Shown here: positions 1-37,369 of the stretch, piece by piece | Position numbering within the stretch: the first letter of the stretch is position 1 | Layout: the number at the start of each line of letters is the position of its first letter | Source of the DNA: Prorocentrum cordatum | Lineage: Eukaryota | Direction of reading: 5' to 3' | Assembly (NCBI GenBank): GCA_963575745.1 | Contig: CAUYUJ010000229.1 | Span: 1-64,000, forward strand | Length of the DNA: 64,000 nucleotides | The notes under the pieces: model-generated | Seen by the model: the letters and a program-made list of their open reading frames with translations, nothing else | What the model was told of the DNA's origin: nothing | The model's database searches: none | Translations under genes and position numbers: made by a program

Positions 1-552
1 GCGGCCGCGGCTGGGAGGGGGAAACTATCGCGAATTTTTCGCGATAGTTTTCTTCTTCCAGCCGCGGCCGCGGCCGCGGCTGCAGCTCTGGCTGTGGCTG
101 CGGCCGCGGCTGGGAGGGGGAAACTATTGCGATTTTTTCGCGGTGGTTTTCTTCTTCCAGCCGCGGCCGCGGCCGCGGCCGCGGCTGCGGCTGCGGCTGC
201 GGCTGGGAGGGGGAAATTATCGCGAATCTGCGCGGCGGTTTTCTTCTTCCAGCCGCGGCCGCGGCCGCGGCTGCGGCTCGGCTGGCGTGGCCGCGGCTGG
301 GAGGGGGAAACTATCGCGATTTTTTCGCGGTGGTTTTCCTTCTTCCAGCCGCGGCCGCGGCCGCGGCTGCGGCTCTGGCTGTGGCTGCGGCCGCGGCTGG
401 GAGGAGGAAATTATCGCGAATTTTTCGCGGTGGTTTTCCTCTTCCAGCCGCGGCCGCGGCCGCGGCTGCGCAGGCGCGGCTGCCGCAGCGGCTGGGAGGG
501 GGAAACTATCGCGAATTTTTCACGGTGGTTTTCTTCTTCCAGCCGCGGCCGC
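1..552 (+). repeat. Tandem array (about 6 units, ~90-100 bp) of hairpin-forming repeats GCTGGGAGGGGGAAACTATCGCGAA-TTT-TTCGCG(A/G)T(A/G)GTTTTCTTCTTCCAGC separated by GCCGCG/GCTGCG runs
   Basis: Units start near 1, 101, 197, 287, 387 and 487. Unit 1 (4-68) folds into a 31-bp stem with 4 G-T pairs and a TTT loop. The array may continue left of the window. Confidence 0.9.
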
Positions 553-1410
<858 letters not shown>

Positions 1411-1448
1411 GGGGGGGGGCCGCCGCCGCCGCGCAGCCTCCACAGGCG

Positions 1449-1488
1449 CTCCTCCTTCCTCTTCCTTTAGGCTCAAGGAGCCTTGAGC
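1449..1488 (+). promoter_or_regulatory. Polypyrimidine tract + AG followed by GCTCAAG: candidate trans-splice acceptor or relic dinoflagellate spliced leader; overlaps the palindrome GCTCAAGG-AG-CCTTGAGC
   Basis: CCTTTAGGCTCAAG at 1464-1477 resembles the 3' part of the dinoflagellate SL (CCATTTTGGCTCAAG). It lies ~115 bp upstream of ATG 1594. Confidence 0.4.
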
Positions 1489-1593
1489 TTCTAGCGCGGC
1501 CCGGGGGTCTGCAGTCGTTCCGCAGGGAGCGGCGGCGGGCTCTGGGGCCTACCTTCGGGGCTAACCCGAGGGAGATCTGCTGTCTCACAGGAG

Positions 1594-3420
1594 ATGGCGG
1601 GGCACCTGGTGAAAGCCCAGGACCTGCTGCTGCCTCCGGGTGGCGGTGGGGGAGCTGGTGCAAGCCTAGCAGAGTCGTGCGTCCCTGCGCGGAGTGCGGC
1701 GCGTCCGGTGGAAACCCGCGACGACCTTCTGCTGCTTCCTCCGGGAGGCGGTGGGGGAGTTGGTGAAAGCCCAGCAGAGCTGTGGCTCCCTCCGGGGACT
1801 GCGGCGTGCCCGGTGAGAACCCGGGAACCTCTCTCTTCAAGACCTGGGCTCTCCTGCCCGGGCCGCCCTTCGGGGTGTGCCTCAGAGCAATCTGAGGAAA
1901 CGCTGGAGCCCGCAGAAGCTTTCGAGCACGCTGTGGGGGAAGGCTCGGCCGCGTACGCGGTTGTGCTCTCGAGTGATCGAGAGAAATGCTGGGTTGATGC
2001 CGGCTCTCCCTCCGCGGGTGCGATGCGCGGACACCCCCGGGTTAACCGCGCCGGGGTTCATCGACACTTCACGGCAGTCGCTCGGGAGTCTCCACTCTCC
2101 GAGAAAGATAGTAGTGAAGGGAACCTCGATCCTACCGAGGCTAAACAAAGGACCTATGCAGCGGGCGCTCGGGAGTCTCCTCTCCCTTGGCAGCTAGCTG
2201 TTGTGGAAGCCCCAGCTCCGGCTGGGCGCCTGGTCGCGCCGCGCTGTGCGGCCGGGGAAAGTCCCGCGAAAGCGGGCCCTGGTTCCCCTCCGGGTTGGCC
2301 TGGTGCCATGGGGACTCGGTGGTTCATCACATCGGGTTACATTAAAGAAAGTTTGGAGGGAATGTCTGTATGTGCGGAAGCGTGGTGTGTCGGTGGCGCG
2401 GCGGGCGCGGTGGGCGGACGCGACTGCGGTCTGCGCTGGGAGGACGAAACGCTCGCCAAATTTTCGCGGGCGTTTTCGGCCCCAGCGCGGGCTGTGCGGC
2501 GCGGGGAGGCCTCTGGGTCAGTGCGCTGGGAGGGGGAAACTATCGCGAATTTTTCGCAACGGTTTTCTGCTCCGGCGTGTGGCCTGCTGGGCCGAGCGGG
2601 CGTTTCGGGAAGGGCGCTCTCGGAGGGGGATGCCCTCGCCGATTTTTCCCGAGGGTCTTCTGCTCCGGGGGCCGCTCGGTGCGGATGTGTCTCTTCGGAG
2701 GCAGCGCGCTGGGAGGGGGAAACTATCGCGAATTTTCTGCGACAGTGTTCCGATTCTGCCGCCAGCGACTGTGACAAGGACGACGAGATTGACGCTGGCG
2801 ACGATTGGTTTGGAGCTGACGACGTTGTCAGGCCAGCCCCGGTTTTGGCTTCCGCTTGGTCACCGGCGTTGGCCTCGGTTCTGTCGCGGCCGTGGCCTCG
2901 GTCCCGGCTCCGTCTGTGCGGGGCGCGGAGCGCGCCCCGCTGCTGGGGGGATCAGTTGAGTGGGAGGACCGGCTGCGTGAGAGCTTGCGCGCAGAGCACG
3001 ACGTGTTCATGGAGGAAGTCGTTGATGATTCCGCCTGGGAGGCGGCGAAGCGCGAGCAGAAAGCGCATCGCAAGGCGTGCCGCGCGTTGCTTCGGAGGTC
3101 GCGCTGCGCGCGGCGGGAGGCGGAGTGGGCGCGGCGGACGGAGGCGGCGGCGGCGCGTAACGAAGAGATGGCGGTCCGTGTCCCGCTTCGGGTCGTGCCG
3201 CGCTCGCTTCCGCGCGATGGGTCGCCGCGTGCGCGCGATGAGTTGCCGCGACGTGCCCGGGTGTCCCGCGCGGCGCTGGGGGGGCGGAGAAGCGCGCGAC
3301 TGCAGCAGTTTCTCAATGCCCGAGCGGCGCGGGCTGTCGATTCGGTGTCCACCCCGCGCGTGGCGCTGCCGTCTCTGGAAGCGCGGGTGTCTGCGCTGTC
3401 AGTCGGGGAGGTTGCGCTGA
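1594..3420 (+). CDS. Upstream ORF, probable N-terminal part of the transposon polyprotein (protein-like to ~2850, then likely joined to the giant ORF by a -1 frame change)
   Basis: ATG start. Contains frame-preserving repeats (2x DLLL(L)PPGGGGG, 2x ARESPL, 4x ~30-aa RWEGETIANFS-type units). Overlaps the giant ORF, whose frame is open from 2820. Confidence 0.5.
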   Translation: MAGHLVKAQDLLLPPGGGGGAGASLAESCVPARSAARPVETRDDLLLLPPGGGGGVGESPAELWLPPGTAACPVRTREPLSSRPGLSCPGRPSGCASEQSEETLEPAEAFEHAVGEGSAAYAVVLSSDREKCWVDAGSPSAGAMRGHPRVNRAGVHRHFTAVARESPLSEKDSSEGNLDPTEAKQRTYAAGARESPLPWQLAVVEAPAPAGRLVAPRCAAGESPAKAGPGSPPGWPGAMGTRWFITSGYIKESLEGMSVCAEAWCVGGAAGAVGGRDCGLRWEDETLAKFSRAFSAPARAVRRGEASGSVRWEGETIANFSQRFSAPACGLLGRAGVSGRALSEGDALADFSRGSSAPGAARCGCVSSEAARWEGETIANFLRQCSDSAASDCDKDDEIDAGDDWFGADDVVRPAPVLASAWSPALASVLSRPWPRSRLRLCGARSAPRCWGDQLSGRTGCVRACAQSTTCSWRKSLMIPPGRRRSASRKRIARRAARCFGGRAARGGRRSGRGGRRRRRRVTKRWRSVSRFGSCRARFRAMGRRVRAMSCRDVPGCPARRWGGGEARDCSSFSMPERRGLSIRCPPRAWRCRLWKRGCLRCQSGRLR

Positions 3421-6400
3421 TTGCAGCTTTAGTTTTCGCTGCGCTGGGTCTGTTCCCGCCAAGGCCACAAGTTCTTTCGGGTGGCCGCGCTGTGACGCGC
3501 GCGATGGCGCGCGCGCGGATGTGGAAAGAGAGAGAGAGCTTCTGGCGCGACGTGGACGCTCCGTCCGATGCGGCGCCGTCTGCCGCGAAGGTTTGGGTCG
3601 CCAAGTGGTTTTACTGTGGCCTGCGTGGGCTCTCCGCGCGGAGGTGCGGGGGGCGGCGCGTGTGCGCGCGCAGGTTCTCCCCCGGCATTGGCATCCGCGC
3701 TGCCAGGGCCAGGGCGGGCCGGGGCGCGGACGAGTGCGTGGGGGGCGCTGCCTGGAGGGCGTCGCAGAGGGCGGGGCAGTGCGTTGGCGATGCGGCTTTG
3801 CGCGTGGCCTGTGTCTTCGCCGCGGTGGGCGGTGTGTCCTGCGATGTGTGTTCCCGCGTGGGACGACTCGGTGCTGCTGGGGGGGTTGGCGCGTCCCGCG
3901 CGTGGCGGCGGCGCCTTCGACGTGGCGTCGCGTCGGGGCGACTCGGAGTCGTTGATGCGGGAGATCGCCTGGGGCCGTGGCGGAACAAGTGTCTGCAATT
4001 GAGTGTCGCTCGGTGCGGGGGTACTGGCGCGCGCGCGCAGGCGGAGTGCTTCTTCGAGTTGCAGTGCGCTAATGATTCCGGAGCTGGGGCGTGCGGTGAC
4101 GCGGCGGAGAAGGCGAACTTTGCTCTCGTGCAGGATTGGCTGGAGTCGCGTGGGGCGATGGTGCGCGTTTATGGGGCGGACGGTGCAGATGCTTTGCTGC
4201 GGGGCGTGTGTTGCGCCGTGTGGGTGCTGGGTTGTCCATGTGGGCACGACTTCGGATCTGTTGTGTGGTATCCCGAGGGCCATGTTGCAGCGGTTGTGGA
4301 TTCGGATGATCGGCTGGGCGCTCGCGTGCGTGTTGGAGATGCGGATGCTGCGCCGTGGCTTCGGTCCGTGGCTGGCGCCCCGAAGGCCGGTATGGGCGGT
4401 GTCAACCCGGATGCCGCGGGGATGAAGCGGCCCCGCCGCGACTTTGCATCTGCGGTCGGCTCTCCTGGTGGCAGCTCGCGTTCTGATGCCGTCTTCATGG
4501 CTCCGTCTCTTGGCGGCCCGCAGCGCGGAGACGGGGATGTGGAGCGTCTGCTGCCAGCAGACGAGGTTTCTAAATCGTCTTCTTCCGCGGGTGTCTCCGG
4601 CGTTCCTCCAGTTGTGCCCGCATCTGCTGCTCCGACCGTATCGGCGCATCTGGACGACGCTGCCGCATCTTTCGCTTCGCCTGTCGTTCCCGACGATGGC
4701 GTCAGGGATTCTGTTGGTCAAAAGTGCGCTTGTGATGGCACGTCGCCGCATTGCAAGTTCGGCCAAATGGTTCTGGGGTCCGGAGGCCATGCTGGTAGGA
4801 AGTGTGGCAATCGAGTGTCGATGAAGGGAGACTGGTGTGGGAAATGTAACGGCCGCTGCCATGGGGGGCAAAGGGGGGGCGCGGTTGGCTGTGTTGCGGA
4901 TATCGCGTCCGCCAGCGACGCCGTCCTCAATCGGGGGGCCGCGTGGGAGTCGTTGCCGCAGCACTTGCGCATGGACCGAGGTGTGGTGTTGCGCGTTGTC
5001 GGAGCTCGGGGGGGGGCTTTGGCTTCGGTACCCATTGAATTCCGAGACGATGTTGAAGTCGTGCTTGCCGCTGTGCGTAGTGATGACTTCGCTTGGGCGT
5101 CCGTGAGCGAACGGTTGCGGCTGGACCCGCGCGTGGTCGAAGAGGTTGCTGGTCAATTGGCTGAGACGGCGGACGAGGTTTCGCATGATGATTGGACCGT
5201 GCTGCCCCAGTTTGCTTCCGTGTTGGTTCGTTCAATGGGGCCCTTGGCCGCGGCGGTGACGAGTCAGCACGTCCGCGATAAGGAACGAATGTGTGTTCTC
5301 CGGCACCTGTGCCCAGCGGATTCTCTCGTGAAGGGTCTCGTTGCGCCGGGCGGCATTCGATTTGCTAGTCCTTCTCTGGCGGAGCGGCAGTGTTTGCAAT
5401 TCCTGGCAGAGAAGTATAAGCTCAAGCCCGAGTTTGTTCACTTCAAGTGCGTCTGGCTGCTTCACATTGCCGTTGCCATCACAGGGATTGCTCCTGCGAG
5501 TGTTCCCATCCATGGTCCGTCTGATGCCGCTGGGGGTGAGAGTGATGGTTTCGTGCTGGGTTCGCTGTACCAGCCGTGTTTGCTGAAGCGCTTCGAGAGG
5601 GGCGTGTCCAATGGTCGGATTACTCCGCTGGGGACGTTCGCGAGGAAGCGGGGGCAGTTTGCCGCGGGTCTTCACAGCCCCGTGCCTGATCTGTCGCCGA
5701 CGACTCTGGCTCATCGCGTCGCTGCGCTGTTCCCGAATGGATCTCTTGCCTCCGAGGATGCGTTTCGTGTGTGGGTGTTCTACGACTTGGTCTTCCGTTT
5801 CTTCGCTGACATCGCTGGCTTCGAAGCGTTCCTCGAGGTCACAGGTGGGTTGTTGCGAGATATCGACGCGTGGGCTCGACGCGCGCGGTTGGTCTTGGCC
5901 GAGTGCCCCTGTCCGGCTTACTTCTGGGGATCTACGAACGACGGGCGCCGGGAGTTCCCCATGGATCTCGTTCGACGTCGCGTGGAAGAGATCGGGTGGT
6001 GCATGTCTTGGCAGGGTGTTTCCGATGCGGATGAGCCAATCGCCCGTGTTTTGGCTTTCGTTGCGTTCCTGGGCGATTGGGCAGTGGGGGCGCGTCGCAT
6101 CGCTGCTGGCGTCATGCGGTTGCAGAGTTCGCGGACTGATTTGCATGCCATCGCCGAAGATATTGCGCTTGATTTTTGTCTGCCAGGGTTTGCTCACGCG
6201 GGAGAATGCCGAAAATTTGAATACTACTGGCCGAAGTTTCCGTTTAGTGACCTCGTGTTGTACTTTCAGGTGTCTCGTGCTTCGCGCGCGTCTGGGCGGT
6301 TCCTCTTGGGTCAGCGGAAGGTTCAGGCTTTGGAAGCCGTTACTTTCAATGGTCGTGGTGGCCGTCTCCCTTTGGTTGCTTTCGACATGGAGCCTTCTCT

Positions 6401-15400: not shown

Positions 15401-18400
15401 CCGACAGTGGGTGCCGGCGTGGGTCGTGGAGCAGTACGAACGCGCGAATCCGTTCTACAAGGAGGTGCTGGGCGCAATCTTGGAGGCTGGTGGGGTGCGG
15501 ACCAACCGCGAGCTGCTGAGGCGGACGCGCCGCGAGATGGTGCGTCGGCACCGGGCGCGGCAGCAGGGGCGTGACGCTGGGGCGGGCGACGCCGCGGGCG
15601 ACGTGGGGGGCCAGGAATCCGACGGTGGCTCGAGGGAGGGTGACGCTGGCAGAGAGAGCGATGCGGCGGAGTCGGGGGAGGACGTGGAGGAGCTGGTGGA
15701 CAGACTCGCGCAGAACGCCGAGGACGATCCCAACGAGGAGCCTCGGGATATCGTGTTGCGCGACCCGCGACCAGGGGAGGGTGTGGAGGGTGCCGCAGGT
15801 GCGGGGGAGGTGTCCGAGTGGGATCGCCGCCCAGCGGATGAGCGTGTTAGCGCGGCGGGCCCCGCGGTGCAGGCGGCAGACGTGCGCGTCGGGGATGTGG
15901 CGCGGGAAGACGTTCGCGGGAGGGTGCGTGTGAACCCGAAGGATTTCAATTGGCTGGATGAACCGTGCAATGTGTCGACAGGGGAGAAGCGGCGCCTCGA
16001 GGAGCTGCGCGATGTCTGGTACGGCAAGGCCAACGTGGGTGACGGGGCCGAGGTCGTCTTGCGCGAAGACCTGGACCCCTGGCAGAAGTTTGCCCACGAC
16101 ATCGTTATGGATGGACGCCACTCCGAGAAGGACCCGCTCCGCCTGATGGTCACGGGCGTGGCAGGCACGGGGAAGTCGCGCACGGTGCGTAGTTTTGTGG
16201 CGGCGAGGCGACAGAGGGCGCGTCAGACGGCTCCGCGGACCAGAATGGATCGGGTGCCGGGCCTCCGGGGTGGGATGCGGGAGGGAAGGCGCTCTCAGTC
16301 GGAGATTGATGAGGAGGTGCGGAATTGCTGTTTGCTGGCTGCTCCGACAGGGTGCGCCTCGTTCCAGTTGAAGTATGGGGCGACTACTCTGCACAGGGCT
16401 TTCGGCGTTCCGGTGGGGTACTGCGGGCCTTGGAAGCAAAAGGGCGGTGAACGCTTCTTGCGGACGCGGGGCCGGTTGCGGCAGGCGAAGCTGTTTGTGT
16501 TGGATGAGATGAGTATGATCGGGCGGCAGATGTTGGGGAAGATCGAGTACAAGGTGCAGGACACTCTGGGCACGGATGCGAAGTTTGCGGCACGCGGAGG
16601 AGGCGGAAAAGGAGGAAAGGGGAGGAAGATGGAGGAGGAGAAGCCAGTGTATCTCGGCGGGAAGGATGTCGTGCTGGCAGGAGATCCGCAGCAGGCGCCG
16701 CCCATCGGCGACGATCCGTTGTATCGAATGGGCAAGTATGAGGGGCATGGGAAAAATAAGCCGAGGGGGGCGGAGCGCACTCCAGACGATGCGTGGAGCA
16801 CGGAGAAGTTGGTGGCCACGGGCCAGTTTGTGCGCAATACGTTCCAGGACGTCGCCGTGCTACGGCGCGTGCACAGATGGAGTGGGAAGAAGGAGGGTCT
16901 GTCCGCCGAGCGGCAGGCGGAGTACCGGCGGGATGCCGATCGTTTTCTGGAGGTGACCAAAGGAATGGCGCAGTGCACGTGGGACCAGTCGGATCATGCG
17001 TGGTTGAGGCGCCGGAACAGGTCGGTGCTGCAGATGACGAAGGAGGGCAGGGAGGAGCTCGCAGCGTTCGAGACGGCGCCGCTGCTGATGGATGGCAGGA
17101 AGGATCGGGCGTCGGGTGCCTGCGGCGCGGATAGGGTGAACCTGGAGAGGCTGTACCAGGTGGCGGCTGCCAGTGGCAAGCCCATTGCGTCTCTGCGCGC
17201 CTATCACAATTGGAAGGATAAAAGTAAATCTCGGCCGGAAGAGATGGCGGCCGACGATTTCCGAGGGATCGAGAACGAGCTTCACATGTGTGAAGGGGCG
17301 CGCGTGCTGCTGACGCAGAACTTGTGGGTCGAGGCGGGGTTGATGAACGGGGCGATGGGCACGCTGCGCGGGTACATGTGGCCGGACGGGGCGGACCCGC
17401 ACAACAGTGCGCGCCCGGATCTGCAGGCGCCCATTTGTGTTTTCGTCGAGTTCGACGACGTCGATCTGGGAAAGGACGAGAATGGCGAGCCGCGGTCTTT
17501 CTTCAAGAACGATCCTGTGCGCAAGAACTGGGTGCCCATCTGGAGGCAGACTGTATCGTCCACGACGGAGGACGGCCTCGCGCGCGAGAACTACCCGCTG
17601 CAGCTGGCGTGGGCTTTGACGCACTGGAAGGCGCAGGGGATGACGTTGGCGAAAGTCCGCGTGCACATGTCGGCGAAGACCGCGGCCGTCGCTGGGATCG
17701 GGTTCGTCGCAACGACGCGCGTCAGGCATCCGTGGGACTTGGTGTTCGAGGAAGACTTGCCGGAGTACGCGGACTTCATGCGGGCCAGGCACACGACGGC
17801 GTTCCGGGAGCGCCGTCGGTTCGAGCTGCGGTTGGAGGCGCGCGCTTCGTCAACGTTGCGGAAGTATGGGTACTGCGAGGCGGATTTGTGGACCGCAGAG
17901 GAGAGGTGTGCGGCGGGGAGATTGTTGGGCCGTCTCGAGACCGTCCGTGCGGCGCAGGCGGAGAGGCTCAGAGGTCTGAACAGAGTGGTGGATGATGACA
18001 CTTGGCTCTGGGGTGAGGACGGCGCGCCGTGCGTGTCCGCGTTGGCTGAGGCTGTCGATGCCGAGGCGGGGGGTGATGACGTCGCGCGGCGGCGTCTGAC
18101 CGCCGTGGCTGACAGGCTCCTGGACCGGAAGAGGGTGCGCGGTGTGACGTTGGAGGAACGCGAGGCCGCGCGGGAGCTGGCGGGTGGGGATGCAGAGGAT
18201 TTCTCTGGTGTTGACACGGTGGAAGAGTTGCGGGGGCGTTTGAGGGCTGCCGCTGCGCGGCTGTCGCGGGAGCGCCCAGACGACGACGGAGTGGAGTTGT
18301 TGGGCCGTGTCGCTGACATGATGGTGGATCGGTGGGTGGCGTGTGGGCGGTGGGATGGTCGCGTGTTCGATGTCGTGGAACCGAGCCTGGGCCCGCTGCA

Positions 18401-21400
18401 CATGAGCGCTGTGAAGGAGGCCATGGGTGCGCTGGTGCCGCCGAGACTGCACGGGAGCTTGGATAAGGCGGCCAGGAAGATGAAGGATGCGTTCGGGGAT
18501 GTTCGCGGTGGCTGCGCGCTGCGGATGGACAAGTGGGTCGTGAACGTGCGGTCGGAGGGCGCTCTGGCGGAGGGCAGACTGGAGCGTCAAGCGTTGGAGT
18601 TCTTCCTGAAGGTGGCGCGACAGCTGTGCTCAGGGTTAGACCTGCCGATGACTGTGGCCTCGGCAAAGGTGGGCGAGCACGTCGGCGCGGAGGAGAACCC
18701 AGAGCATTTTGCTCGGGTGGCGCACAACTGGACGAGCGTTTGGGACGCGAGCTGCGTCAGCGATAAGAAGGAGTTGCTGATGGTTGCTGCCGTGGACGCT
18801 CTGAGCGTGTCTGGCGTTCCCCAGGATTGGATCTTCGTGCGCGTCCAGGCTGGTCGGGCGGGGGAGGCGCTCGGGCGTGCCGAGTCTCTGACCGTGTGCG
18901 TGTACGATCGAGGCCGCAGGGAGGCGGTTGCAGGGCGAATCGCTCGGAATATCGACGCGCTGCTGCGGCCGATACAGGCCAGTGATGGGCGGCGCCCGCC
19001 ACCAGTGGTAGAGTTTGGGGAGGCGCCGCACGTTCGGGTGCCTTCGCAGAGGATCGCCGGCGCACTCGGGCTCCTGCTGGGCCACGTTGGTCGCGGGGCC
19101 GGTGCCAGGGTGCTGGATGCGTCGGCGGAGTCGTTCGTGCCAGACGTGTGTCGTGCGTTGCGGGGCGCGTTCGCGTCTTTCCGCGCGGGTGTCGGCGCGC
19201 GGGGTGCGCGGGATGTCATGGAGTTGTTGCTCTCGGACCAGGAGTGCCGTGACGCTCTGGACCTCTTCGGCGTCGCCCCGCGCGCGGATGTGTCTGGGCC
19301 CAGTGCGGCGGGCGCGGGCCGGGCGATGGCGGGTGTGGTGGGGAGGGCCGTGGACGAGGCAGGCGAGGGAGAGGGCCTTGAGGGCGCGTCGACGTTGTCG
19401 TTTGCGACGTGGAACATTGCTGGTGGGCATCGCGCTGCCGTGGCGCCGCATTCCTGGACCGCGCGGGATCAGCGCGCCGCGGTTCTTGGCGAGGTGCTCC
19501 GTTGGAGGCAGGCGCGCGGGTGTGACGTCGTTGCCTTGCAGGAGTGCGAGGGCGGGGGTGCGTACGAGGAGCTGTCAGGGGAGTTTCAATTGGCGGGCGT
19601 TGCGCAGGCGCACGAGTCCAGGGGGTATGTGCATCTGTACGTCAGGCACGGTCTGCGGGCGGAATCTGTGGCTGTGCCAGGGCAGGATCCGTGCGTGCTG
19701 TGCCGTGTCCAGGTGCCCGGAGACGGCGGCGCCGGCGGCGATGGGCACGTGCACGTGGCGGCGGTGCACCTGCCCACGGACGCGTCATGGGAACGGCGTC
19801 GTGCGATACTTGGGAAGATTGTGGCGAAGTGCGGGGACGAATGCCATCGGCTGCTCATCGTGGGCGACATGAACAGCACGGATGCGCAGGTGCAGGCAGC
19901 CGTGGAGCAGTTGCGTCTGAGGGACGCATGGTATGAGGGCCGATCCTGGGGTTGCCCCGGCAATAAGTTCTATTCGGGTCTCGGCGAGAGGGGGGCTGTC
20001 GGCCAGAGACGTGACCGGGTGCTCTTTGGAGCGGATCTCTGGTCCGAGGTGCACTTGGTAGGGAAAGGGAAGGTGTTCTTCGAGGGTTCCGAGTTCCACA
20101 TGTCCGACCACTATGGGCTGTTCGGGTATGTGCGTGCCCACGCGTGCTTTGGATCTCGGGAGCAGAAGATGAGGGCCGTGGCGCAGCGCGCGCGAGTCGT
20201 GCTGCAGGCGACGCGCGATCAGTCACAGAGACTGGAGGGTGTGGAGGTTCAGAGTCGGTTACAGCGTGGTCGAGAGGCCGCGGCGCTGGCCCGGCAGCAG
20301 GCGCAGGAACGAGATCGAGAGGCGTACTTGCGGACGCAGCAGCGGGCTGCCGGCCGCCGACAGCGCCGTCGGGAACAAGCGATATCCGCAGCGTTCGGGC
20401 CACAGAGTTTGTTTGCTTTGGGTCGCCCGGTTCCGCCGCCGCCGAGCCCCTGCCCGCCTCCGCCGCCACCGTGCCCGGCAGACATGTATGTCCCGAACGT
20501 GGCTGGCATTCGCGCGGCTTCGTGGGACAGCGTGCGGTGCGTGCCCGTCCGAGGGATGCCGCGGCCATGGCACACCTGCTACGTGGTCAGTGTGACGCAG
20601 CTGATGTTGCGGACGCCTGCCGTCTTGGAGTGGCTTCGATGGCATTCAGAGCAGCAGTGCGAGGACCGGGGCACGGGGCGTTGTTGCGTGTGCGGGATGT
20701 GGGAGACGTACAACCAGTTGTGCTCGCGACGCTGGCAGCAGGGACCTGTGAGTGTGCTGCGGCGTACGAGCGTTGACTGCGACGACGATGTGATGGGGCG
20801 GCCGAGTGAGTTCAATGACCCGTGGCAGCAGCAGGATGTGTTTGCGTATTGGGGTAAGCTGATGGTGGCTGCGCGTGACGCAGAGATGTTGGCAGGTCGG
20901 TTTGCGCAGCGGGAACCCGATAGCATCCGCGCGGTGAATCTGCGGGTGACGTGCGTTGATCAGATGTTCGGGTTCGTCGTGGAGAAGCGGGAGAAGTGTG
21001 ACGTGTGCAATTACGAGACTGTCGCGTACGAGGCTGAGGATGTGCTGAAGCTGCGTGTTCATGGGCGTCCAGGTGGGCCCTTGATGCTGCAGGAGTTGTA
21101 CTGCGACTTTTGTGCTCCTGAAGATATCGAGAAGAGCTGCCCGGGGTGCTGCCGCGACGAGCACGACCGGGTTAAGCACGTGAGGCAGACGAGAGCCACT
21201 GGTGTGCCACAGGTTCTGGTGGTTCAATTGAGGAGGGGCTCCGAGGCGCGGGAGGCAGTGTGGGTGGAAGAGCAACTGAGGCTGCCAGGGCTTCCCCAGA
21301 TGCAGTTGGTCGGTGTGGTTTACCATAATGGGCGGTCAGTTAATTGCGGCCATTACACGACTCTGTGCCGCGTTCATGATGGGAGGTACTTCATGTTTGA

Positions 21401-22730
21401 CGACGACGAGCCACCGCGCTTGATCCGAGACGAGCCGGCGCACATCAAGCAGAAGGAGGCGTACATGGCAGTGTATTGCCGCCTGGGCCGCGGTCAGGGG
21501 CAGGGCGCGGGCGCAGGTGCGACCGAGGTGGACGCAGCGCGTGAGGGGCAGGGCAGTGGCGGGAGTGGGCCGGGGGGCGGTGATGCGAGTGCGTCTGGTG
21601 GCGGCGGATGGGGCGGGGGTGGGGCTGTTGGTGGTGACGCCGACGGAGCGACGGAGCGCGAGGGGGGGAGTGGGGCGTCGGCGGCCCGAGGGAACGGGCG
21701 CGCGGGCGGCGTCGCTGGCGATCGGGCCGGGGCTTCGGCGTCTGTTGGGTCGAGGGGTGAGCCTACGTCCGGCGGTGGAGTTGGTGCAGGGCCAGGCCGT
21801 GGAGGACGCAGGGAGGGCGTTGTCTCGGTTGCCGCCGCCGAGCCGCGTTCCGCGAGCAGGCGCCTGCGGAGGAAGTGCGCGGTTTCGACGTCAGGGGAGG
21901 GGCGCGCCGTCGATGGTGATTGTGCGGCTGGGCGGCGAGCGGTCACGACGAAGGGCAGGGCTTCGGGCGCAGCCGAGTCAAGGGGCGCGGCAGGCGCCCG
22001 CGACTTGACCGCTGGGGTTGGCGGGGGGGCGGTGTCTCCGAGGGAGGGGGGGGTCTCTGGCTCGCCTGGTGGCGCCGCTCCGCGTTCCGCCGCGCGGCGG
22101 GCACGGGAAAAGACGGCGACGCCTCGCTCGGATGCAGGGGCGGCGGGTGGCGCGGCGGGCGCGGCTGGAGTCAGGGATGTCGGCGGGGAGCGCGACGTCG
22201 CTGGGCCAGGGCGCGTCCGAGGTGCTCGAGGGTCCGGGGGGGCGCGCGCGGGCGGCGGGGGTCTAGGTGGCGATGTGGCGTGCGCGAGTGTCGCGGGGGG
22301 GAAAGATGCGGCAGCGGTGGAGACGGTGCGGGTTTCAGCGTCGGGGAAACGAAAGGTGGAGCCTCGGTCAGAGGCGGAGGTCCCGCGGAGGAGCTCGGCG
22401 CGTTTGGCGGCGCGAGCTGCGCCCGGCCCCGTCGCGGTCGAGGAGGGGGCTGCCGCGGGCGAGGGCGCGTATATACGGGGGGGGGTGCTGGTGCGCCCGA
22501 GGCGCGCGGAGCCGTCTGGACCGTCGAGTGGCGGCGGCGCCGCGCGAGTGGTGACAGGTTTCGGCGCGGGAAGGATCGAGAACTTGGCTGCGTTCCAGCG
22601 CAGCCGCGATTTGGGGGATGCGACGCGCGCGTCGCAGCGGGTCTCGGAGGGGGCCCGAGGGAGGTGCGTGGATATGCAGGGGAATGAGCTGGATCCGTCT
22701 GCGGGGTCCGCCTGGCATGCGGGTCGATAG
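2856..22730 (+). CDS. 6624-aa Rep-helicase polyprotein: 2x papain-like module, DUF4116, aGPT-Pplase-like domain, split CW finger, DUF6570-like region, HUH Rep, PIF1 helicase, Ulp1-like domain, EEP nuclease, USP protease
   Basis: 19.9 kb with no stop codon and many recognisable motifs in Helitron order. The annotated start is TTG and the first in-frame ATG is at 3009. Confidence 0.93.
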   Translation: MVTGVGLGSVAAVASVPAPSVRGAERAPLLGGSVEWEDRLRESLRAEHDVFMEEVVDDSAWEAAKREQKAHRKACRALLRRSRCARREAEWARRTEAAAARNEEMAVRVPLRVVPRSLPRDGSPRARDELPRRARVSRAALGGRRSARLQQFLNARAARAVDSVSTPRVALPSLEARVSALSVGEVALIAALVFAALGLFPPRPQVLSGGRAVTRAMARARMWKERESFWRDVDAPSDAAPSAAKVWVAKWFYCGLRGLSARRCGGRRVCARRFSPGIGIRAARARAGRGADECVGGAAWRASQRAGQCVGDAALRVACVFAAVGGVSCDVCSRVGRLGAAGGVGASRAWRRRLRRGVASGRLGVVDAGDRLGPWRNKCLQLSVARCGGTGARAQAECFFELQCANDSGAGACGDAAEKANFALVQDWLESRGAMVRVYGADGADALLRGVCCAVWVLGCPCGHDFGSVVWYPEGHVAAVVDSDDRLGARVRVGDADAAPWLRSVAGAPKAGMGGVNPDAAGMKRPRRDFASAVGSPGGSSRSDAVFMAPSLGGPQRGDGDVERLLPADEVSKSSSSAGVSGVPPVVPASAAPTVSAHLDDAAASFASPVVPDDGVRDSVGQKCACDGTSPHCKFGQMVLGSGGHAGRKCGNRVSMKGDWCGKCNGRCHGGQRGGAVGCVADIASASDAVLNRGAAWESLPQHLRMDRGVVLRVVGARGGALASVPIEFRDDVEVVLAAVRSDDFAWASVSERLRLDPRVVEEVAGQLAETADEVSHDDWTVLPQFASVLVRSMGPLAAAVTSQHVRDKERMCVLRHLCPADSLVKGLVAPGGIRFASPSLAERQCLQFLAEKYKLKPEFVHFKCVWLLHIAVAITGIAPASVPIHGPSDAAGGESDGFVLGSLYQPCLLKRFERGVSNGRITPLGTFARKRGQFAAGLHSPVPDLSPTTLAHRVAALFPNGSLASEDAFRVWVFYDLVFRFFADIAGFEAFLEVTGGLLRDIDAWARRARLVLAECPCPAYFWGSTNDGRREFPMDLVRRRVEEIGWCMSWQGVSDADEPIARVLAFVAFLGDWAVGARRIAAGVMRLQSSRTDLHAIAEDIALDFCLPGFAHAGECRKFEYYWPKFPFSDLVLYFQVSRASRASGRFLLGQRKVQALEAVTFNGRGGRLPLVAFDMEPSLGLYKKLRDLDSDLLRSDALPIRECWVGPRCVDPALLTAYDPQVTNCMLWKHDVCVWKPPNQRFLGVSRDVDAFYRFWRKTYRVERQNVSAPRGVQDPLLPPPVPVSSPSVPVPSPSSAGAAWCLRVQDSATAGRLSVVDYGSVFVGLPRKCFPLCIAASGGSAWNIADATAFFAERLSNDVGTGMGGGVVEKANMDLVLLWLQMRSAGYWVFRAKASSDFFSGAVAGPWWLGAPGAACVGALLWLEHGHVVRIVDDDGVFLSASFSAGVSSAESADAPWLRSVAGAPKKKAAAKSKRGAHFRGAQNPISMAAVAARQRRATGEDGAPSSSGEDMPVIPGVTVDDADSGDAAGASVLRRPAAAAATHGRASGDESDSGEDMPMLPGVTVEEDDAGAARARSDAVAPQAAAARRALRGAASAAAPPSDSDGEEMPVLPGVTVDVGGADDGASDGSGPAARPRGARRARRKRGAADGALASEAESRQFQPDYVDEDRCKGLTWGGGWGREQCRFRPKTGSDVCGKCARYGCPHGRVRGPIPAGALDKFKEFALKANKPSKQWYARHAMWDVASKMKPELKSLCEVDEHKRFVLTNSEYEQCLKQVHDNLRIHKNHGRSGFVYEKGAGVRTLQDRCGEGTTRFGSERESYNGQQGGKVFMWYSRAVFNKYLGQLQASEMDCSEKDCVEALRLTSEEIRRYPMKQQYLRPYAGPQCYPHIDPRSKENRLHANERMGHALGEDPQGGGDGGARPEACGGADDGASHLFCMRNWAQCDRCHCWRLLLPACAARARGDEYYRVRDTDLDWEGWLTGAAHRCAAAAGASRDQGAALGGGGGDAVEGAMQQGGGADEGGGGGEMRGGARKRRLGRKTSEAEAAEPVAVRGGARKRRLGRKTSEAEAAASGAGRRGAEEGRAGEGGAEVPEARRGRRRLERKTSAEEGAEAGGAVRGAVDEEGGGDETFVGMAELSASDCDDERSASDHECASEEDAAPLPREVRSALDAELVRFAGAGPPTEADWAEARAAEEGRGSAPRRAGLSRTGGGDARAWAVASVPHLKDKRMVALVGAVREYLVLCRQCDRGSFRIQGSDGDKLWVALMEPGRPGQFGRVLLELEDRARGRGPSAERSSWEAIAVEEDFRRRSEWPRVRFECSMLQTPVVSESGGTQWRAVRCCDEPDGGDADDFQALWQRESRVAAGFAANVVRDDDVVVLPVERPAGWTEPAHMAGAWWRGQGPRERRAEEGENPGRVWVGQLQEDAGVAGLLPEGGAGERTAKEGLDALQQAGQGARGAGRAGRGRGRRAKKRGRYGNDLRAVIRTRWAPGRSSEGAGPGVAESFVFGSAPESEHWEIRVEARLRERCGGRVDQRARVAAGDVHQKCMLLALKTVPLRVAKYDVQLRDASVRAVQAAQAILTRMVKFTCHECQERFPAFHPAFEPPDQLADEMLLLRRGGDGLAACSTEVAEWDEVPPSDPPDGFALECAGVCMRCRRDLDKQAAAAPTEDDLYQVVGLRTAQNHMDPCFRFPSDDLRDLFDQATLTESLLIALDHMQVHLATVSRTGLRKFRKNIISFPQDVAGFARRHELMKGYRVGDRVNSVRGPGERPDDPHRPERIAAGGTDEERQRFGVDVYGRLVFPGRVAEVLLSGEVIIDYDHGGRGRELQENVEPRVMLPWHPRKVPFSLMLRRNVGFGKEVVEGLHVRWRYCGHLLRALCAFAGTCGPWRLGGTANEPMHKYYDPRLFDVLPDDDIIRCYAPKESDDGAVLSGDEAGEAEGPGPVTRAEAIARDTVPCGVDVVTPRQFIAAGFDVHFVGPRDEAQRGARVRDGDGAQRGDEGGQDAAGDGGAMEADEDQFDVGDGDEAMAVDHDVFSAWLEKAQFRYGGAVQRWWAGLQPEAEGHLEGLKFGDDETTEDLFGRLLDAARGESKVVAVQRDRVPVECVCVDFLVHWMGPRVGGPFSDPGGGVTPEAVLDDVMLELAMAGRFVGAAQDKDTGCVEENLPEFDEDEVVARTGERMIYGWPGQSDDPIPARSVGRFARAFPLEFPMGIGDLFEDRPRRVSVQEWVQHLMRYRTGQFVGGPRGQRVMWAMVNVLLLNEARAKGFGVYRTMYRRAGLAVQGPSVMTKGGLRQILESEDRVRILVGQLANVGRDVPSTTMHWSYESKKLQSTVKHLSWHPPWVEGPLADGAEHVGRRFLREMDLPAGNGRTQRRRPLVPDVVGLGRHPSIWWTQNPFYNAAFDIQRMGGGRGARAAGERALGDWVGDGREERFRFARDNPDLVAYMMALRVELNMRMVMPAVLPHSEQFKYMAMARAECGAGGNLHYHGFSVGLPGPEVARVRADVDGEGDMLPPSVTSDLAACLPSLEAGPMAWPPQEQKRRAAALAVLERVLRAAAGRPGARASRGRGGEDTAASGSGSEDGADDDDEDEFVGRADALLDALVDRGWLVIVDVDEGARGRGGDRDVAFERVGREISAPVDALGESPVEDGEGGDGAEDAGAGWPGPAGVRLQRLTGAGADFGVLKPEHENVSLQSVLEKRFYEFFGHVVSEWNPCYDDAGACRYTWDDEVGAFDVDVEMEDQAAAETSEARAVRSVPASAPECLNLRKVLDEAFQSEAAGTLDVQPVRRMVSALVNRVARHTKHGMGPPKLGVHACARGKEGCVFCRYDFPRERWGRVGPRPFRMEKGRREGHWQAVFPRNDRLCNSYEEHVLLANMGNIDWRPVLNLWAVVEYVTKYATKAPKGSRKIKEVLDDAVNEVCAYVPDGEGTDFLRRSIQKFFARMLGERDYHCYEVALLGLRLPMVLSMMPVVTLNTTGARALKPASALRDKSEDEPVHWDSKVDKFDKRLELVRRQRARGDGSITEEEVRDVSLFEFYWKYAVYRGKLRRGNPAVCLQVTPGYSAECANVEHACHEAYARANVIAHWRHMATADRRAMIGAEMRRDVRPVPEVCIGATDFVPHAGGDRFLGVQDLWFKSGGAAWRGREDRFWGDMLMEMLTDPMLRQWVPAWVVEQYERANPFYKEVLGAILEAGGVRTNRELLRRTRREMVRRHRARQQGRDAGAGDAAGDVGGQESDGGSREGDAGRESDAAESGEDVEELVDRLAQNAEDDPNEEPRDIVLRDPRPGEGVEGAAGAGEVSEWDRRPADERVSAAGPAVQAADVRVGDVAREDVRGRVRVNPKDFNWLDEPCNVSTGEKRRLEELRDVWYGKANVGDGAEVVLREDLDPWQKFAHDIVMDGRHSEKDPLRLMVTGVAGTGKSRTVRSFVAARRQRARQTAPRTRMDRVPGLRGGMREGRRSQSEIDEEVRNCCLLAAPTGCASFQLKYGATTLHRAFGVPVGYCGPWKQKGGERFLRTRGRLRQAKLFVLDEMSMIGRQMLGKIEYKVQDTLGTDAKFAARGGGGKGGKGRKMEEEKPVYLGGKDVVLAGDPQQAPPIGDDPLYRMGKYEGHGKNKPRGAERTPDDAWSTEKLVATGQFVRNTFQDVAVLRRVHRWSGKKEGLSAERQAEYRRDADRFLEVTKGMAQCTWDQSDHAWLRRRNRSVLQMTKEGREELAAFETAPLLMDGRKDRASGACGADRVNLERLYQVAAASGKPIASLRAYHNWKDKSKSRPEEMAADDFRGIENELHMCEGARVLLTQNLWVEAGLMNGAMGTLRGYMWPDGADPHNSARPDLQAPICVFVEFDDVDLGKDENGEPRSFFKNDPVRKNWVPIWRQTVSSTTEDGLARENYPLQLAWALTHWKAQGMTLAKVRVHMSAKTAAVAGIGFVATTRVRHPWDLVFEEDLPEYADFMRARHTTAFRERRRFELRLEARASSTLRKYGYCEADLWTAEERCAAGRLLGRLETVRAAQAERLRGLNRVVDDDTWLWGEDGAPCVSALAEAVDAEAGGDDVARRRLTAVADRLLDRKRVRGVTLEEREAARELAGGDAEDFSGVDTVEELRGRLRAAAARLSRERPDDDGVELLGRVADMMVDRWVACGRWDGRVFDVVEPSLGPLHMSAVKEAMGALVPPRLHGSLDKAARKMKDAFGDVRGGCALRMDKWVVNVRSEGALAEGRLERQALEFFLKVARQLCSGLDLPMTVASAKVGEHVGAEENPEHFARVAHNWTSVWDASCVSDKKELLMVAAVDALSVSGVPQDWIFVRVQAGRAGEALGRAESLTVCVYDRGRREAVAGRIARNIDALLRPIQASDGRRPPPVVEFGEAPHVRVPSQRIAGALGLLLGHVGRGAGARVLDASAESFVPDVCRALRGAFASFRAGVGARGARDVMELLLSDQECRDALDLFGVAPRADVSGPSAAGAGRAMAGVVGRAVDEAGEGEGLEGASTLSFATWNIAGGHRAAVAPHSWTARDQRAAVLGEVLRWRQARGCDVVALQECEGGGAYEELSGEFQLAGVAQAHESRGYVHLYVRHGLRAESVAVPGQDPCVLCRVQVPGDGGAGGDGHVHVAAVHLPTDASWERRRAILGKIVAKCGDECHRLLIVGDMNSTDAQVQAAVEQLRLRDAWYEGRSWGCPGNKFYSGLGERGAVGQRRDRVLFGADLWSEVHLVGKGKVFFEGSEFHMSDHYGLFGYVRAHACFGSREQKMRAVAQRARVVLQATRDQSQRLEGVEVQSRLQRGREAAALARQQAQERDREAYLRTQQRAAGRRQRRREQAISAAFGPQSLFALGRPVPPPPSPCPPPPPPCPADMYVPNVAGIRAASWDSVRCVPVRGMPRPWHTCYVVSVTQLMLRTPAVLEWLRWHSEQQCEDRGTGRCCVCGMWETYNQLCSRRWQQGPVSVLRRTSVDCDDDVMGRPSEFNDPWQQQDVFAYWGKLMVAARDAEMLAGRFAQREPDSIRAVNLRVTCVDQMFGFVVEKREKCDVCNYETVAYEAEDVLKLRVHGRPGGPLMLQELYCDFCAPEDIEKSCPGCCRDEHDRVKHVRQTRATGVPQVLVVQLRRGSEAREAVWVEEQLRLPGLPQMQLVGVVYHNGRSVNCGHYTTLCRVHDGRYFMFDDDEPPRLIRDEPAHIKQKEAYMAVYCRLGRGQGQGAGAGATEVDAAREGQGSGGSGPGGGDASASGGGGWGGGGAVGGDADGATEREGGSGASAARGNGRAGGVAGDRAGASASVGSRGEPTSGGGVGAGPGRGGRREGVVSVAAAEPRSASRRLRRKCAVSTSGEGRAVDGDCAAGRRAVTTKGRASGAAESRGAAGARDLTAGVGGGAVSPREGGVSGSPGGAAPRSAARRAREKTATPRSDAGAAGGAAGAAGVRDVGGERDVAGPGRVRGARGSGGARAGGGGLGGDVACASVAGGKDAAAVETVRVSASGKRKVEPRSEAEVPRRSSARLAARAAPGPVAVEEGAAAGEGAYIRGGVLVRPRRAEPSGPSSGGGAARVVTGFGAGRIENLAAFQRSRDLGDATRASQRVSEGARGRCVDMQGNELDPSAGSAWHAGR
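3936..4385 (+). other. Duplicated module copy 1: GRLxVVD...KC...EKAN...W..GHV...APWLRSVAGAPK (putative papain-like protease plus cleavage motif)
   Basis: Aligns with copy 2. Cys codon at 3990 and His codon at 4281. Confidence 0.55.
4920..5147 (+). other. DUF4116-type helical repeats
   Basis: AWESLPQHLRMDRGVVLRVV / ALASVPIEFRDDVEVVLAAV / AWASVSERLRLDPRVV: 25-aa periodic pattern typical of DUF4116. Confidence 0.75.
5550..6650 (+). other. Globular domain resembling the aGPT-Pplase1 / 5-hmdU-DNA-kinase helical (HhH-glycosylase-related) family
   Basis: Ordered motifs LVFRFF, LPGF...FSDLVLY, TFNGRGGRLPL and LTAYDPQVTNCMLWKH parallel the family's FR/KxFN, DLxY, GPGAxxGL and DxQxxxCExxKY motifs (comparison from memory). 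Confidence 0.45.
6798..7265 (+). other. Duplicated module copy 2 (putative papain-like protease plus APWLRSVAGAPK motif)
   Basis: Cys codon at 6852 and His codon at 7146. The terminal motif is identical to copy 1 at the protein level. Confidence 0.55.
7881..8015 (+). other. Cys/His-rich putative zinc-binding motif RCxxxxWGGGxGxxQC...CxxC...HGRVxGPIP
   Basis: Motif read from the translation; family not assigned. Confidence 0.5.
8697..9923 (+). other. CW-type zinc finger apparently split by a ~370-aa insertion
   Basis: WAQCDRCHCWRLL (8700-8738) and FECSML...CDEPD (9837-9923) match the two halves of zf-CW. Confidence 0.5.
10647..14830 (+). other. Helitron Rep region: CxxC...CxxC finger, DUF6570-like segment, Helitron_like_N, HUH and Y2 motifs
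   Basis: FTCHECQERFP...CMRC; TLTESLLIA...KNIISFPQDV; AFPLEFPMG; GRHPSIWWT (motif I); NLHYHG at 13350-13367 (HUH); YVTKYATK at 14586-14609. Confidence 0.9.
16071..17760 (+). other. PIF1-family SF1B helicase domain
   Basis: GVAGTGKS (16155-16178), LAAPTG, TTLHR, LDEMSM, GDPQQAPP, GARVLLTQN, YPLQLAWALTHWKAQGMTL, FVATTRV. Confidence 0.96.
18555..19090 (+). other. Degenerate Ulp1/SENP (C48)-like fold, apparently lacking the catalytic His and Cys
   Basis: LAEGRLERQALEFFL, KELLMV...QDWIFV and VCVYDR parallel the C48 WLxDxxIxF, HWxL and IxxYDS motifs. Confidence 0.35.
19395..20135 (+). other. EEP (APE/TDP2-like) endonuclease/phosphodiesterase domain
   Basis: FATWNIAG, DVVALQE, AVHL, IVGDMN, RDAW, RDRVL, SDHYGL. 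Confidence 0.9.
20550..21482 (+). other. Ubiquitin-specific protease (peptidase C19) domain
   Basis: Cys box GMPRPWHTCYVVSVTQ (Cys at 20577), QQQD, CxxC/CxxC finger, His box HNGRSVNCGHY (His at 21351), FDD, AYMAVY. Confidence 0.88.
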
Positions 22731-22857
22731 GGCGGGGGGTGCGGTGGGAGCTGGGTGTTGAGGGGGGAAGAGTGGGGAAGCAAGACGGGGGGGGAGAGCG
22801 GGTAAATCAGGGCAAGGCTGTGCTGCGAGGTTCGGCTCCTCCCCCCTCAAGTCTTTT

Positions 22858-22958
22858 CTCTCCGCTGGCGCTCCGTGAGGGCGAAGTGGCTGGAGCGGAG
22901 GGAGGGCTGGCCCCGTAGTGGGGCGGTGCCTCCCCCCTCCGGAGCGCCAGCGAGGAGG
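22858..22958 (+). repeat. GC-rich nested hairpin island, copy 1 of 9 (others at ~23113, 26138, 28165, 30973, 32880, 35629, 36895, 37520)
   Basis: Consensus core of the copies is GCGCTCCGCGAGGGCGGAGTGGTTGGAGTGGAGGGAGGGCCGGCCCCAAAATGGGGCGGTGCCTCCCCCCTCCGGAGCGC; it has self-complementary ends. Confidence 0.85.
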
Positions 22959-23218
22959 GGGGTGCGCGTGGATGAAGGGCTGGAACTCTTTGTGGCGGTG
23001 GCGCCGATCAAGTGGTGGATGGTTCCGAAGGGATCGATGATTGGAGGGGCCTGGGGAGGGTCTCGGGTATGCCGGGAAATGAGTTGGATCCGTCGGCGTG
23101 GTTGTCGGAGTTCGCGAGGGCGGAGTGGTTGGAGTGGAGGGGCGGCCGGCCCCGAAATGGTGCGGCGCCTTCCCCCTCCGGAGCGCCGGAAGGGGGTGTG
23201 GTGGGTGGGGGGGGGGCT

Positions 23219-23348
23219 CTGTGTGCCTGTCTGTGTGTCTGTGTGTCTATGTCTCTATGTGTCTATGTGTCTGTGTGTCTGTGTGTCTGTGTGTCTGTGT
23301 TTTTGCGTCTGTGTGTCTGCGTGTCAGTGTGTCAGTGTGTCTGTGTAT

Positions 23349-23391
<43 letters not shown>

Positions 23392-36623: not shown

Positions 36624-36662
<39 letters not shown>

Positions 36663-36708
36663 GTGTCTGCTGTCTGTGCGTGTGTGTGTGTCTGTCTGTC
36701 TGTCTGTC

Positions 36709-36755
<47 letters not shown>

Positions 36756-36785
36756 GTCTGTCTGTCTGGTCTGTCTGTCTGTCCG

Positions 36786-36843
<58 letters not shown>

Positions 36844-37331: not shown

Positions 37332-37369
<38 letters not shown>

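Follow-up and report, generated by a model that had tools for sequence, protein, structure and literature searches.

We analysed the first 64,000 nucleotides (nt) of contig CAUYUJ010000229.1 of Prorocentrum cordatum (hereafter the window), in which the original prediction had placed a giant rolling-circle transposon polyprotein. The forward strand, to which all features below belong, carries a giant open reading frame (ORF) at 2856..22730, and the region is very likely an autonomous, intact member of a multicopy family of Helitron-like rolling-circle transposons, placed on the Helentron/Helitron2 ('HLE2') side. As known so far, Helitron-like elements encode modestly sized Rep-helicase proteins that now and then carry added domains of unknown role. 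The family described here, spread through marine metagenomes, keeps 5,000-6,600 codons in one frame together with a fixed set of ubiquitin-system domains, a further case of the unusually large, multi-enzyme mobile elements that dinoflagellate genomes contain. Its order runs from variable cargo through an OTU domain with its tail, acidic repeats, zinc motifs, a DUF6570-like stretch, Rep and PIF1 to a degenerate Ulp1/SENP fold, a TDP2-like EEP domain, a USP domain and a conserved tail, followed by a hairpin of ~90 nt.

The giant reading frame and its relatives

The ORF comprises 6,624 codons from a TTG at 2856 to a stop codon at 22728-22730, and its translation is stop-free. The frame is already open at 2820, and the earliest in-frame ATG is at 3009 (residue 52), from which the protein would measure 6,573 amino acids (aa); TTG 2856 and ATG 3009 are candidate start codons. 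No Pfam family was found in residues 1-330 in a Pfam scan, and the N termini of two relatives (P0003 and P0167) upstream of OTU have no match to the window upstream of 3900. Position 1594, originally given as the start, was rejected: the ORF at 1594..3420 lies in a different frame, has no Pfam match and, with GC by codon position of 0.72/0.64/0.61, is without the periodicity of the main ORF (GC1 > GC2 < GC3 across residues ~600-6300). GC content is 0.62-0.70 over 1..23000 versus ~0.50 past 38 kb, and antisense and off-frame ORFs of 300-740 aa are numerous in the GC-rich stretch, none of them of 6,624 codons. Because the stop-free run is so long at 68% GC, the giant ORF is not a chance product, and the 6,624-codon frame is a real coding frame. 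The predicted 19.9-kb stop-free ORF therefore exists, with codon periodicity. It is intron-less, and the whole domain set is encoded in a single frame.

Relatives of comparable size were found elsewhere. Among proteins of 3,643-11,592 aa, eight giant relatives carry both PIF1 and Exo_endo_phos, and seven of the eight also carry UCH. Colinear relatives span about 3,800-5,600 aa and cluster members reach 5,583 aa (P0163, P0003, P0161 and P0167, 5,014-5,583 aa). One of them, P0003 (5,179 aa), is colinear with window residues 1625-6469, and colinear relatives from other sources show 40-52% identity over more than 4,000 aa. At E ≤ 1e-3 the Rep-helicase piece matched 1,273 representatives, most of them fragments, and 43 metagenome loci encode relatives. 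The frame of locus L012 runs without a stop for 6,460 aa at a GC content of 55%; the size is therefore neither a GC artefact nor unique to the window. The original description as an unusually large lineage thus holds for the exceptional size of the protein. It does not hold for unique length, which is a family trait, the extra ~980 residues of this copy coming from a low-copy insert considered below.

Of the 28 loci whose match spans 3 kb or more, nine are uninterrupted and 19 are broken, the pattern expected of a transposon family. Contigs at least 99% alike made up 287 of 504 in public run X1 and 6,381 of 11,693 in X7; so many near-identical copies are compatible with recent activity, though the window may itself come from X1. 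The claim that this is an intact copy is borne out by an uninterrupted frame within a multicopy family that has many near-identical copies. Near-identical 31-letter words of 5000-14000 occurred in 20 runs from 13 studies, comprising marine, freshwater, 'urban' and plankton metagenomes and cultures. Run X18, RNA by guess only, covers most of 9204-23200 and very little upstream.

A long imperfect hairpin of ~90 nt (22863..22952) lies ~130 nt past the stop codon and is a candidate 3' cis signal. Its DNA fold has an energy of -36.4 kcal/mol (z -3.79), and none of 200 shuffles was as good. The gap between the arms is 64 nt. Across 10 units there are 35 consensus pairs, eight of them with compensatory changes, and the units of locus L002 keep pairing through double changes. 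In that locus, whose protein is ~51% identical, three tandem hairpin units follow the stop. The window itself has a second, partial 3' unit (23040..23210), made of the ORF end and the right part of the hairpin unit, in tandem at a spacing of 239 nt; X7 contigs carry variable numbers of tandem 3' unit copies (joints from 23140-23152 back to 22905-22926), and word depth is very high at 22932.

Domains of the conserved core

Nearly every domain named in the original prediction was found again in its order, each checked separately by Pfam, profiles, models or translation. The Rep (HUH) domain (12993..15035) contains 'GGNLHYH' (HUH at 13356-13364; 'HYH' at aa 3501) and 'YVTKYATK' (14586-14609; aa 3911). 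Residues H122, H124, Y532, K535 and Y536 were invariant in all 12 aligned Rep sequences ('GGN(P/L)H.H', 'Y..KY'), so that the HUH motif and two catalytic tyrosines expected of a Helitron-like Rep were present in 12 of 12. Matches of the family's Rep pieces to known profiles were weak (Helitron_like_N in 5/12, best E 1e-4; REP_ORF2-G2P in 6/12), and the distant relative P0027 scored 31.1 bits to Helitron_like_N against a cutoff of 28.9. The PIF1-type helicase (16143..17705; Walker A GTGKS at 16164, DEMSM at 16503; 38.6 bits) lies C-terminal to Rep, as in Helitron-like proteins, and PIF1 matched in all 11 scanned relatives; a single-sequence search of the PDB with residues 3201-5000 returned Pif1 helicases only. 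With HUH, two tyrosines and PIF1 in place, the region encodes a rolling-circle-type Rep-PIF1 protein of exceptional size, as had been proposed.

The EEP domain (19350..20165; Exo_endo_phos 52.8 bits) follows the helicase within one and the same frame, a Helentron feature also seen in 10 of 11 relatives. It had been expected to be of apurinic endonuclease (APE) type, which the profile search contradicted. LINE endonuclease structures exist in the PDB. When a 15-sequence EEP profile was compared with the PDB, the 13 best distinct sequences were all TDP2 (E 2.3e-13 to 8.9e-11), followed by beta-hemolysin and nocturnin at ~2e-6 (best 1.9e-6), plant APE at 0.54 and ExoIII at 0.61, with no LINE endonuclease among the best 50 matches. 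The TDP2 alignment covered profile positions 2-238 of 245. Residues N22, E65, D173, N175, D253 and H254 were invariant. By sequence, the EEP domain is closest to TDP2, a 5'-tyrosyl-DNA phosphodiesterase, and not to AP or LINE endonucleases. The likeness to TDP2 (PDB 5ino, 5j3p, 5ht2, 4gyz and others) consists of a near full-length match of ~50 bits, the catalytic N, E, D/N and D-H, and the stretches 'TWNI.G', 'GD.N.R' and 'RFDR'; unlike TDP2, the family's EEP domain is built into a transposase, and its phosphodiesterase function is predicted. Among the papers searched, none mentions TDP2 alongside Helitron or tyrosyl-DNA phosphodiesterase alongside Helentron. Within this family, the TDP2 likeness of the so-called 'endonuclease' suggests a concrete, testable role for an added domain.

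Between the helicase and the EEP domain lies a domain of Ulp1/SENP fold (18393..19295). Its model (predicted local distance difference test (pLDDT) 85.8; predicted template modelling score (pTM) 0.83) matched NEDP1 in a VIA search at Z 18.1 (root-mean-square deviation (r.m.s.d.) 3.2 over 201 aligned residues) and Ulp1 at Z 15.9. NEDP1, Ulp1 and SENPs ranged over Z 18.1-13.7, the top 29 VIA matches all belonged to the CE clan, and Foldseek gave E 5.4e-6. Of the catalytic triad, the Asp (D172) alone was invariant in 19 Ulp1-like sequences, the His and Cys places being variable and occupied by Q and R in the window; these places were assigned by visual inspection of the motif layout and not by structural superposition. 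Because the triad Asp alone is invariant, the domain is probably a catalytically dead pseudo-protease. The prediction of an Ulp1-like domain was thus right about the fold, and conserved catalytic His and Cys were not found. In the ESM Atlas the best match of this piece (0.86) was to HopA1-named clusters, with low recognition values. A complex prediction of the SENP-fold domain with a ubiquitin encoded by locus L031 scored 0.00, which is evidence neither for nor against.

The USP/UCH deubiquitinase domain (20571..21476) has a 'HTCY' Cys box and a 'GHYT' His box, matches UCH at 54.1 bits and was recovered as predicted; the family USP profile scored 100.5 bits to USP36 in the PDB, and T-C-Y and H-Y were invariant in seven USP sequences. 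The C-terminal deubiquitinase varies among relatives: P0027 has a Josephin domain in place of USP (aa 3066-3203), and P0167 has two USPs (the second at aa 5083-5311), as well as a second copy of a Cys/His motif from the middle of the protein. The protein ends in a conserved tail (22167..22727) with a stop position common to relatives; in a phmmer search this tail matched the ends of P0005, P0007, P0167, P0161 and P0163.

N-terminal to Rep, the acidic repeats (7353..7835) appear in translation as three 'GEDMP.(I/L)PGVTV' units. They are followed by the Cys/His motif 'CKGLTW...CGKC...H' with a conserved domain (7884..8750), colinear in P0003, P0167, L012 and L031, which ends in a CW-type-like zinc finger (8697-8750; zf-CW E 0.019, 15.4 bits, cutoff 27.5). 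The predicted acidic repeats and zinc motifs are therefore present in the translation, the zf-CW match being weak. A DUF6570-like stretch (10938..11126; aa 2695-2757) scored 20.3 bits, below the cutoff of 24.3; in relatives DUF6570 was found in 3 of 11 at E ≤ 1e-3, and above the cutoff only in P0027 (28.2 bits). Basic repeats of the 'RRL.RK(T/S)S' type occur at 8961-9044 (aa 2036-2063), at ~21850, in linkers and in the C-terminal tail, and in P0003 too; they may serve nuclear localisation or phosphorylation. Further conserved stretches, outside the assigned domains, lie at aa ~1660-2010, 2250-3380 and 4950-5180.

Many of these parts have been described separately. Passages of the HELIANO paper report DUF6570, EN (Exo_endo_phos), UCH and OTU in HLE2 and Peptidase_C48 in Helitron-like elements, and propose DUF6570 as an HLE2 marker (Li et al. 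2024, PMC11417382). EN, UCH, OTU and a C48-type fold also occur in the window family, along with the DUF6570-like stretch that scores below the cutoff; since these domain types are separately known in Helitron-like elements, the separate parts are not new. What differs from those passages is their combination: in that account UCH is enriched in subgroups c and d while EN enrichment falls in subgroup b, whereas the window family has both together, and added domains are described as lying mostly in separate ORFs, whereas here they share one frame. The words dinoflagellate, Symbiodini- and Alveolat- are absent from the main text of that paper.

As described in passages of Thomas et al. (2014, PMC4067079), Helentrons likewise join Rep, PIF1 and an EEP-superfamily domain in one ORF and have an associated OTU-type protease, end stem-loops and a habit of gene capture that Helitrons share. 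The Helentron endonuclease is described there as an AP endonuclease closest to those of CR1 LINEs. Because its EEP domain is TDP2-like, the window family departs from that feature, and the position of the domain is kept. It further differs in having OTU, SENP fold and USP all in the same ORF, with a protein of 5,200-6,600 aa. At the Rep residue described as diagnostic in that source ('S' in RG(S)PH.H for Helentron, 'L' for Helitron), the family's 'E.G.GGN(P/L)H.H' has N, which is neither. A Helitron2-like RepHel of Symbiodinium microadriaticum, also a dinoflagellate Rep-helicase element on the Helentron/Helitron2 side, is described without an endonuclease domain in passages of Heringer and Kuhn (2021, PMC8788227), which also mention no giant multi-protease architecture.

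Cargo, polyprotein processing and alternative readings

Two protease-like modules had been proposed near the N terminus, and both were found. OTU-like module 1 (3903..4391; aa ~350-512) ends in APWLRSVAGAPK (4350-4385), and module 2 (6780..7271; aa 1309-1472; Cys 1333, His 1431) has the tail APWLRSVAGAPK at 7230-7265. The modules are paralogues with 39% identity, and K-C and H-V were invariant across six aligned OTU sequences (the two window modules and four relatives). The predicted structure of module 2 (pLDDT 68.6, pTM 0.66) places the Cys at a helix N terminus. In a VIA structure search with this model, the top 31 of 50 matches were all OTU deubiquitinases (best Z 7.1, r.m.s.d. 3.4, 111 residues aligned). 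In Foldseek, OTU accounted for all but one of the 35 matches listed, the best being OTUD1 at a weak E of 0.012. We assign module 2 to the OTU fold with moderate confidence, from this model. With two OTU modules, one Ulp1/SENP fold and one USP, the suggested count of up to four cysteine-protease-fold domains was reached. The N-terminal modules of P0003 and P0167 match module 1, and the single module of P0003 matches both window modules.

The two window modules and the four relatives share a tail motif, 'PW(L/Y)R..(A/G)G(A/F)(P/G)K'. The 12-residue tails of modules 1 and 2 are identical in protein, with five synonymous and no non-synonymous differences, so the motif appears from the sequences to be kept by purifying selection. 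It is located exactly where variable cargo meets the conserved core. Conserved LRGG-type junctions were sought throughout the giant protein, and only the two OTU tails were found; '(M/V)RGGARKRRLGRKTS' repeats (aa 2036 and 2060) were considered as GG junctions and rejected, GG not being conserved in P0003.

Module 1's tail and the body of module 2 belong to an in-frame insert at about 4295..7229, which also holds a captured gene-like unit flanked by linkers. We aligned the contigs of four public runs (X1, X7, X10 and X18) to 3201..23200 and read the word depth, a sum over contigs that does not equal copy number. Summed depth was high up to ~4294 and ranged over 148-975 in X1 and 365-1,548 in X7 across 7203..23200. 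Over 4535..6535 it was 11.6 in X1 (a single 2,699-nt contig with eight differences) and 0 in X7, X10 and X18. A single X10 contig joins 4294 directly to 7230. Because of this contig and the contrast in depth, the stretch is a low-copy addition, and members of the family normally carry a single OTU in a protein of about 5,200-5,600 aa; the 2.9-kb insert accounts for the extra ~980 residues. GC3 is ~0.6 in the insert versus ~0.8 in the core.

The gene-like unit (4698..6623; aa 615-1256) contains a Cys-rich finger visible in translation, DUF4116 (4974-5120; cutoff 24.9, with 25.4 bits for a 775-aa piece and 22.5 bits for a 2500-aa piece) and a helical domain, in the order first proposed. The helical domain had no Pfam family, and its best ESM Atlas matches (0.92) were unnamed clusters with low recognition values. 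The unit is 52-57% identical to predicted whole proteins, 549-646 aa long, whose records read 'unnamed protein product, partial [Prorocentrum cordatum]', and reads as a gene capture, probably from a dinoflagellate gene. The cargo had also been called DNA-modification-like, a description we drop: Pfam scans of the giant protein found no such domain. Loci L012 and L031 carry other cargo of 900-1,400 aa upstream of OTU, sharing a DnaJ-containing block. L031 encodes a complete ubiquitin (604-831; Pfam 83.8 bits) that ends in LRLRGG and shares one open frame with the OTU module; DnaJ-like and WW-like stretches follow this ubiquitin.

These features allow a mechanism to be proposed. In a rolling-circle reaction, Rep would nick DNA and become tyrosine-linked to the 5' end (a 5'-phosphotyrosyl intermediate), PIF1 would unwind 5'->3', and the hairpin would mark the 3' end. 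TDP2 detaches proteins joined through tyrosine to a DNA 5' end, and this is the bond that HUH Rep proteins form. The TDP2-like domain may accordingly be proposed to hydrolyse 5'-phosphotyrosyl (Rep-DNA) links or otherwise process ends, rather than nick as AP-type enzymes do. OTU would cut at its own tail, freeing the N-terminal cargo from the transposase core, and the USP and dead SENP-like domains may read or remove ubiquitin-like marks. Polyprotein processing is plausible because the OTU tail is conserved, the cargo of L031 contains an LRLRGG ubiquitin and the N-terminal cargo is swappable. Viral OTU proteases (TYMV PRO/DUB, nairovirus vOTU and arterivirus PLP2) offer a parallel, being OTU-like folds in long polyproteins. 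Viral OTU chains are among the structural matches of module 2, but at Z of only 2.9-5.3, and the window element is a DNA transposon in which OTU cleavage is a proposal. With swappable cargo beside a protease with a conserved tail, the family lends itself to testing whether a DNA transposon uses polyprotein processing.

Several observations weigh against taking the region for an intact autonomous Helitron-like copy on the HLE2 side. The 5' terminus is not recognised or lies outside the window, which begins inside GC-rich tandem repeats. The window Rep had no Helitron_like_N match at E ≤ 1, the Rep profile found no solved Rep structure in the PDB at E ≤ 10, and the window's DUF6570 match falls short of its cutoff (20.3 versus 24.3 bits). 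The USP Cys box reads 'RPWHTCY' where the family has 'N.GNTCY', three positions off with the Cys kept. The insert joint is seen in one X10 contig (depth 2.82) together with the depth profiles, and no RNA run is listed among the 20 runs that contain near-identical words. Instead of a transposon, the region could be an endogenous virus or plasmid-like replicon with a Rep-helicase and a processed polyprotein. The papain-like proteases in a polyprotein-like layout and the GC content of 0.62-0.70, against ~0.50 elsewhere in the window, would fit such an origin. We nevertheless judge it very improbable, given the highly multicopy state with decayed copies, the Rep-PIF1 fusion, DUF6570 and Helitron_like_N in relatives, and the terminal hairpin; no capsid or other virion gene was found in the Pfam scans, and a search of 2.9 million viral contigs gave 26 pattern matches and no relative. 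Still further from credible is that the frame arose by chimeric assembly or stayed open by chance because the DNA is GC-rich. The many antisense and off-frame ORFs of 300-740 aa show how readily frames stay open here, but the colinear relatives elsewhere and the equally long frame of L012 at 55% GC argue otherwise. As for a chimera, public contigs cross both insert borders (X1, 4116-6814, with the caveat that this run may be the window's own source; X7, 6730-7286).

For the copy as a transposon, the questions are whether the protein is cut and whether its long form matters. The fullest proposal, which we regard as tentative and rather unlikely as a whole, is that the element brings its own kit for the Rep-DNA bond, with a TDP2-type activity, a SENP-like reader and a USP that would release or protect the intermediate, and that OTU would cut at '...SVAG/APK', releasing cargo (ubiquitin, DnaJ and captured host genes) from one 20-kb message; if true, a DNA transposon would be using a polyprotein strategy in the manner of viruses. 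It is quite possible, if somewhat on the doubtful side, that the giant protein stays uncut and works as one multidomain machine, with the OTU, USP and SENP-like domains targeting ubiquitin or ubiquitin-like marks of the host in trans, for example shielding covalent Rep-DNA from DNA-protein crosslink handling or blunting host silencing. The swaps of the C-terminal deubiquitinase (USP, two USPs in P0167, Josephin in P0027) fit a general need for deubiquitination, the SENP-fold domain adjoins the TDP2-like domain, and the OTU tail is disordered in the module 2 model (pLDDT <50 at residues 137-164). Against an uncut machine stand the tail motif, exactly at the border of cargo and core and apparently under purifying selection, and the complete LRLRGG ubiquitin inside the L031 frame, since ubiquitin fusions are expected to be cleaved. 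Nearly an even call is whether the 6,624-codon form is a one-off recombinant or capture accident without a function of its own, the working transposon having ~5,200-5,600 aa. The insert's depth of 11.6 in X1 and its absence from X7, X10 and X18 point that way, as does its GC3 of ~0.6 against ~0.8 in the core, and gene capture is usual in Helitrons and Helentrons in the passages cited above (PMC4067079). Yet the frame stays open through ~980 insert codons, two complete OTU-plus-tail units bracket the insert, as expected for cargo release by cleavage, and L012 and L031 also have cargo of 900-1,400 aa upstream of OTU.

Flanking repeats

Downstream of the element, a 13-kb (CTGTGTGT)n array (23612-36893, within 23113-37700) is punctuated by same-orientation copies of the 3' hairpin unit at about 26183, 28216, 31029, 32931, 35686, 36941 and 37550. 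Each of these units is preceded by a GC-rich segment with a C run and followed by a G run and microsatellite. The array could be a chain of hairpin-plus-microsatellite units, either non-autonomous derivatives or repeated 3' ends. From 38964 to 62528 there are many short arrays with a repeat of ~176-178 bp and ~50% GC, without the 3' hairpin unit. Two ORFs in this part (50699-51775 and 51673-52977) had no Pfam family, nor did P0002.

Upstream of the giant ORF, 99-bp and 93-bp tandem repeats (1-555 and 2400-2740) share the motif GGGAGGGGGAAACTATCGCGAATTTTTCGCG, whose core is palindromic, and extend in part into the rejected ORF at 1594..3420. A spliced-leader relic was considered and rejected: the 21-nt dinoflagellate leader had no match with up to three mismatches, and its 11-nt end occurred twice against 0.79 expected. 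A (CGA)147 trinucleotide array occupies 965-1409 with 98% matches. GC skew is strongly positive (0.16-0.38) along 1-38000, comprising the element and the microsatellite array, versus ~0.05 past 38 kb.

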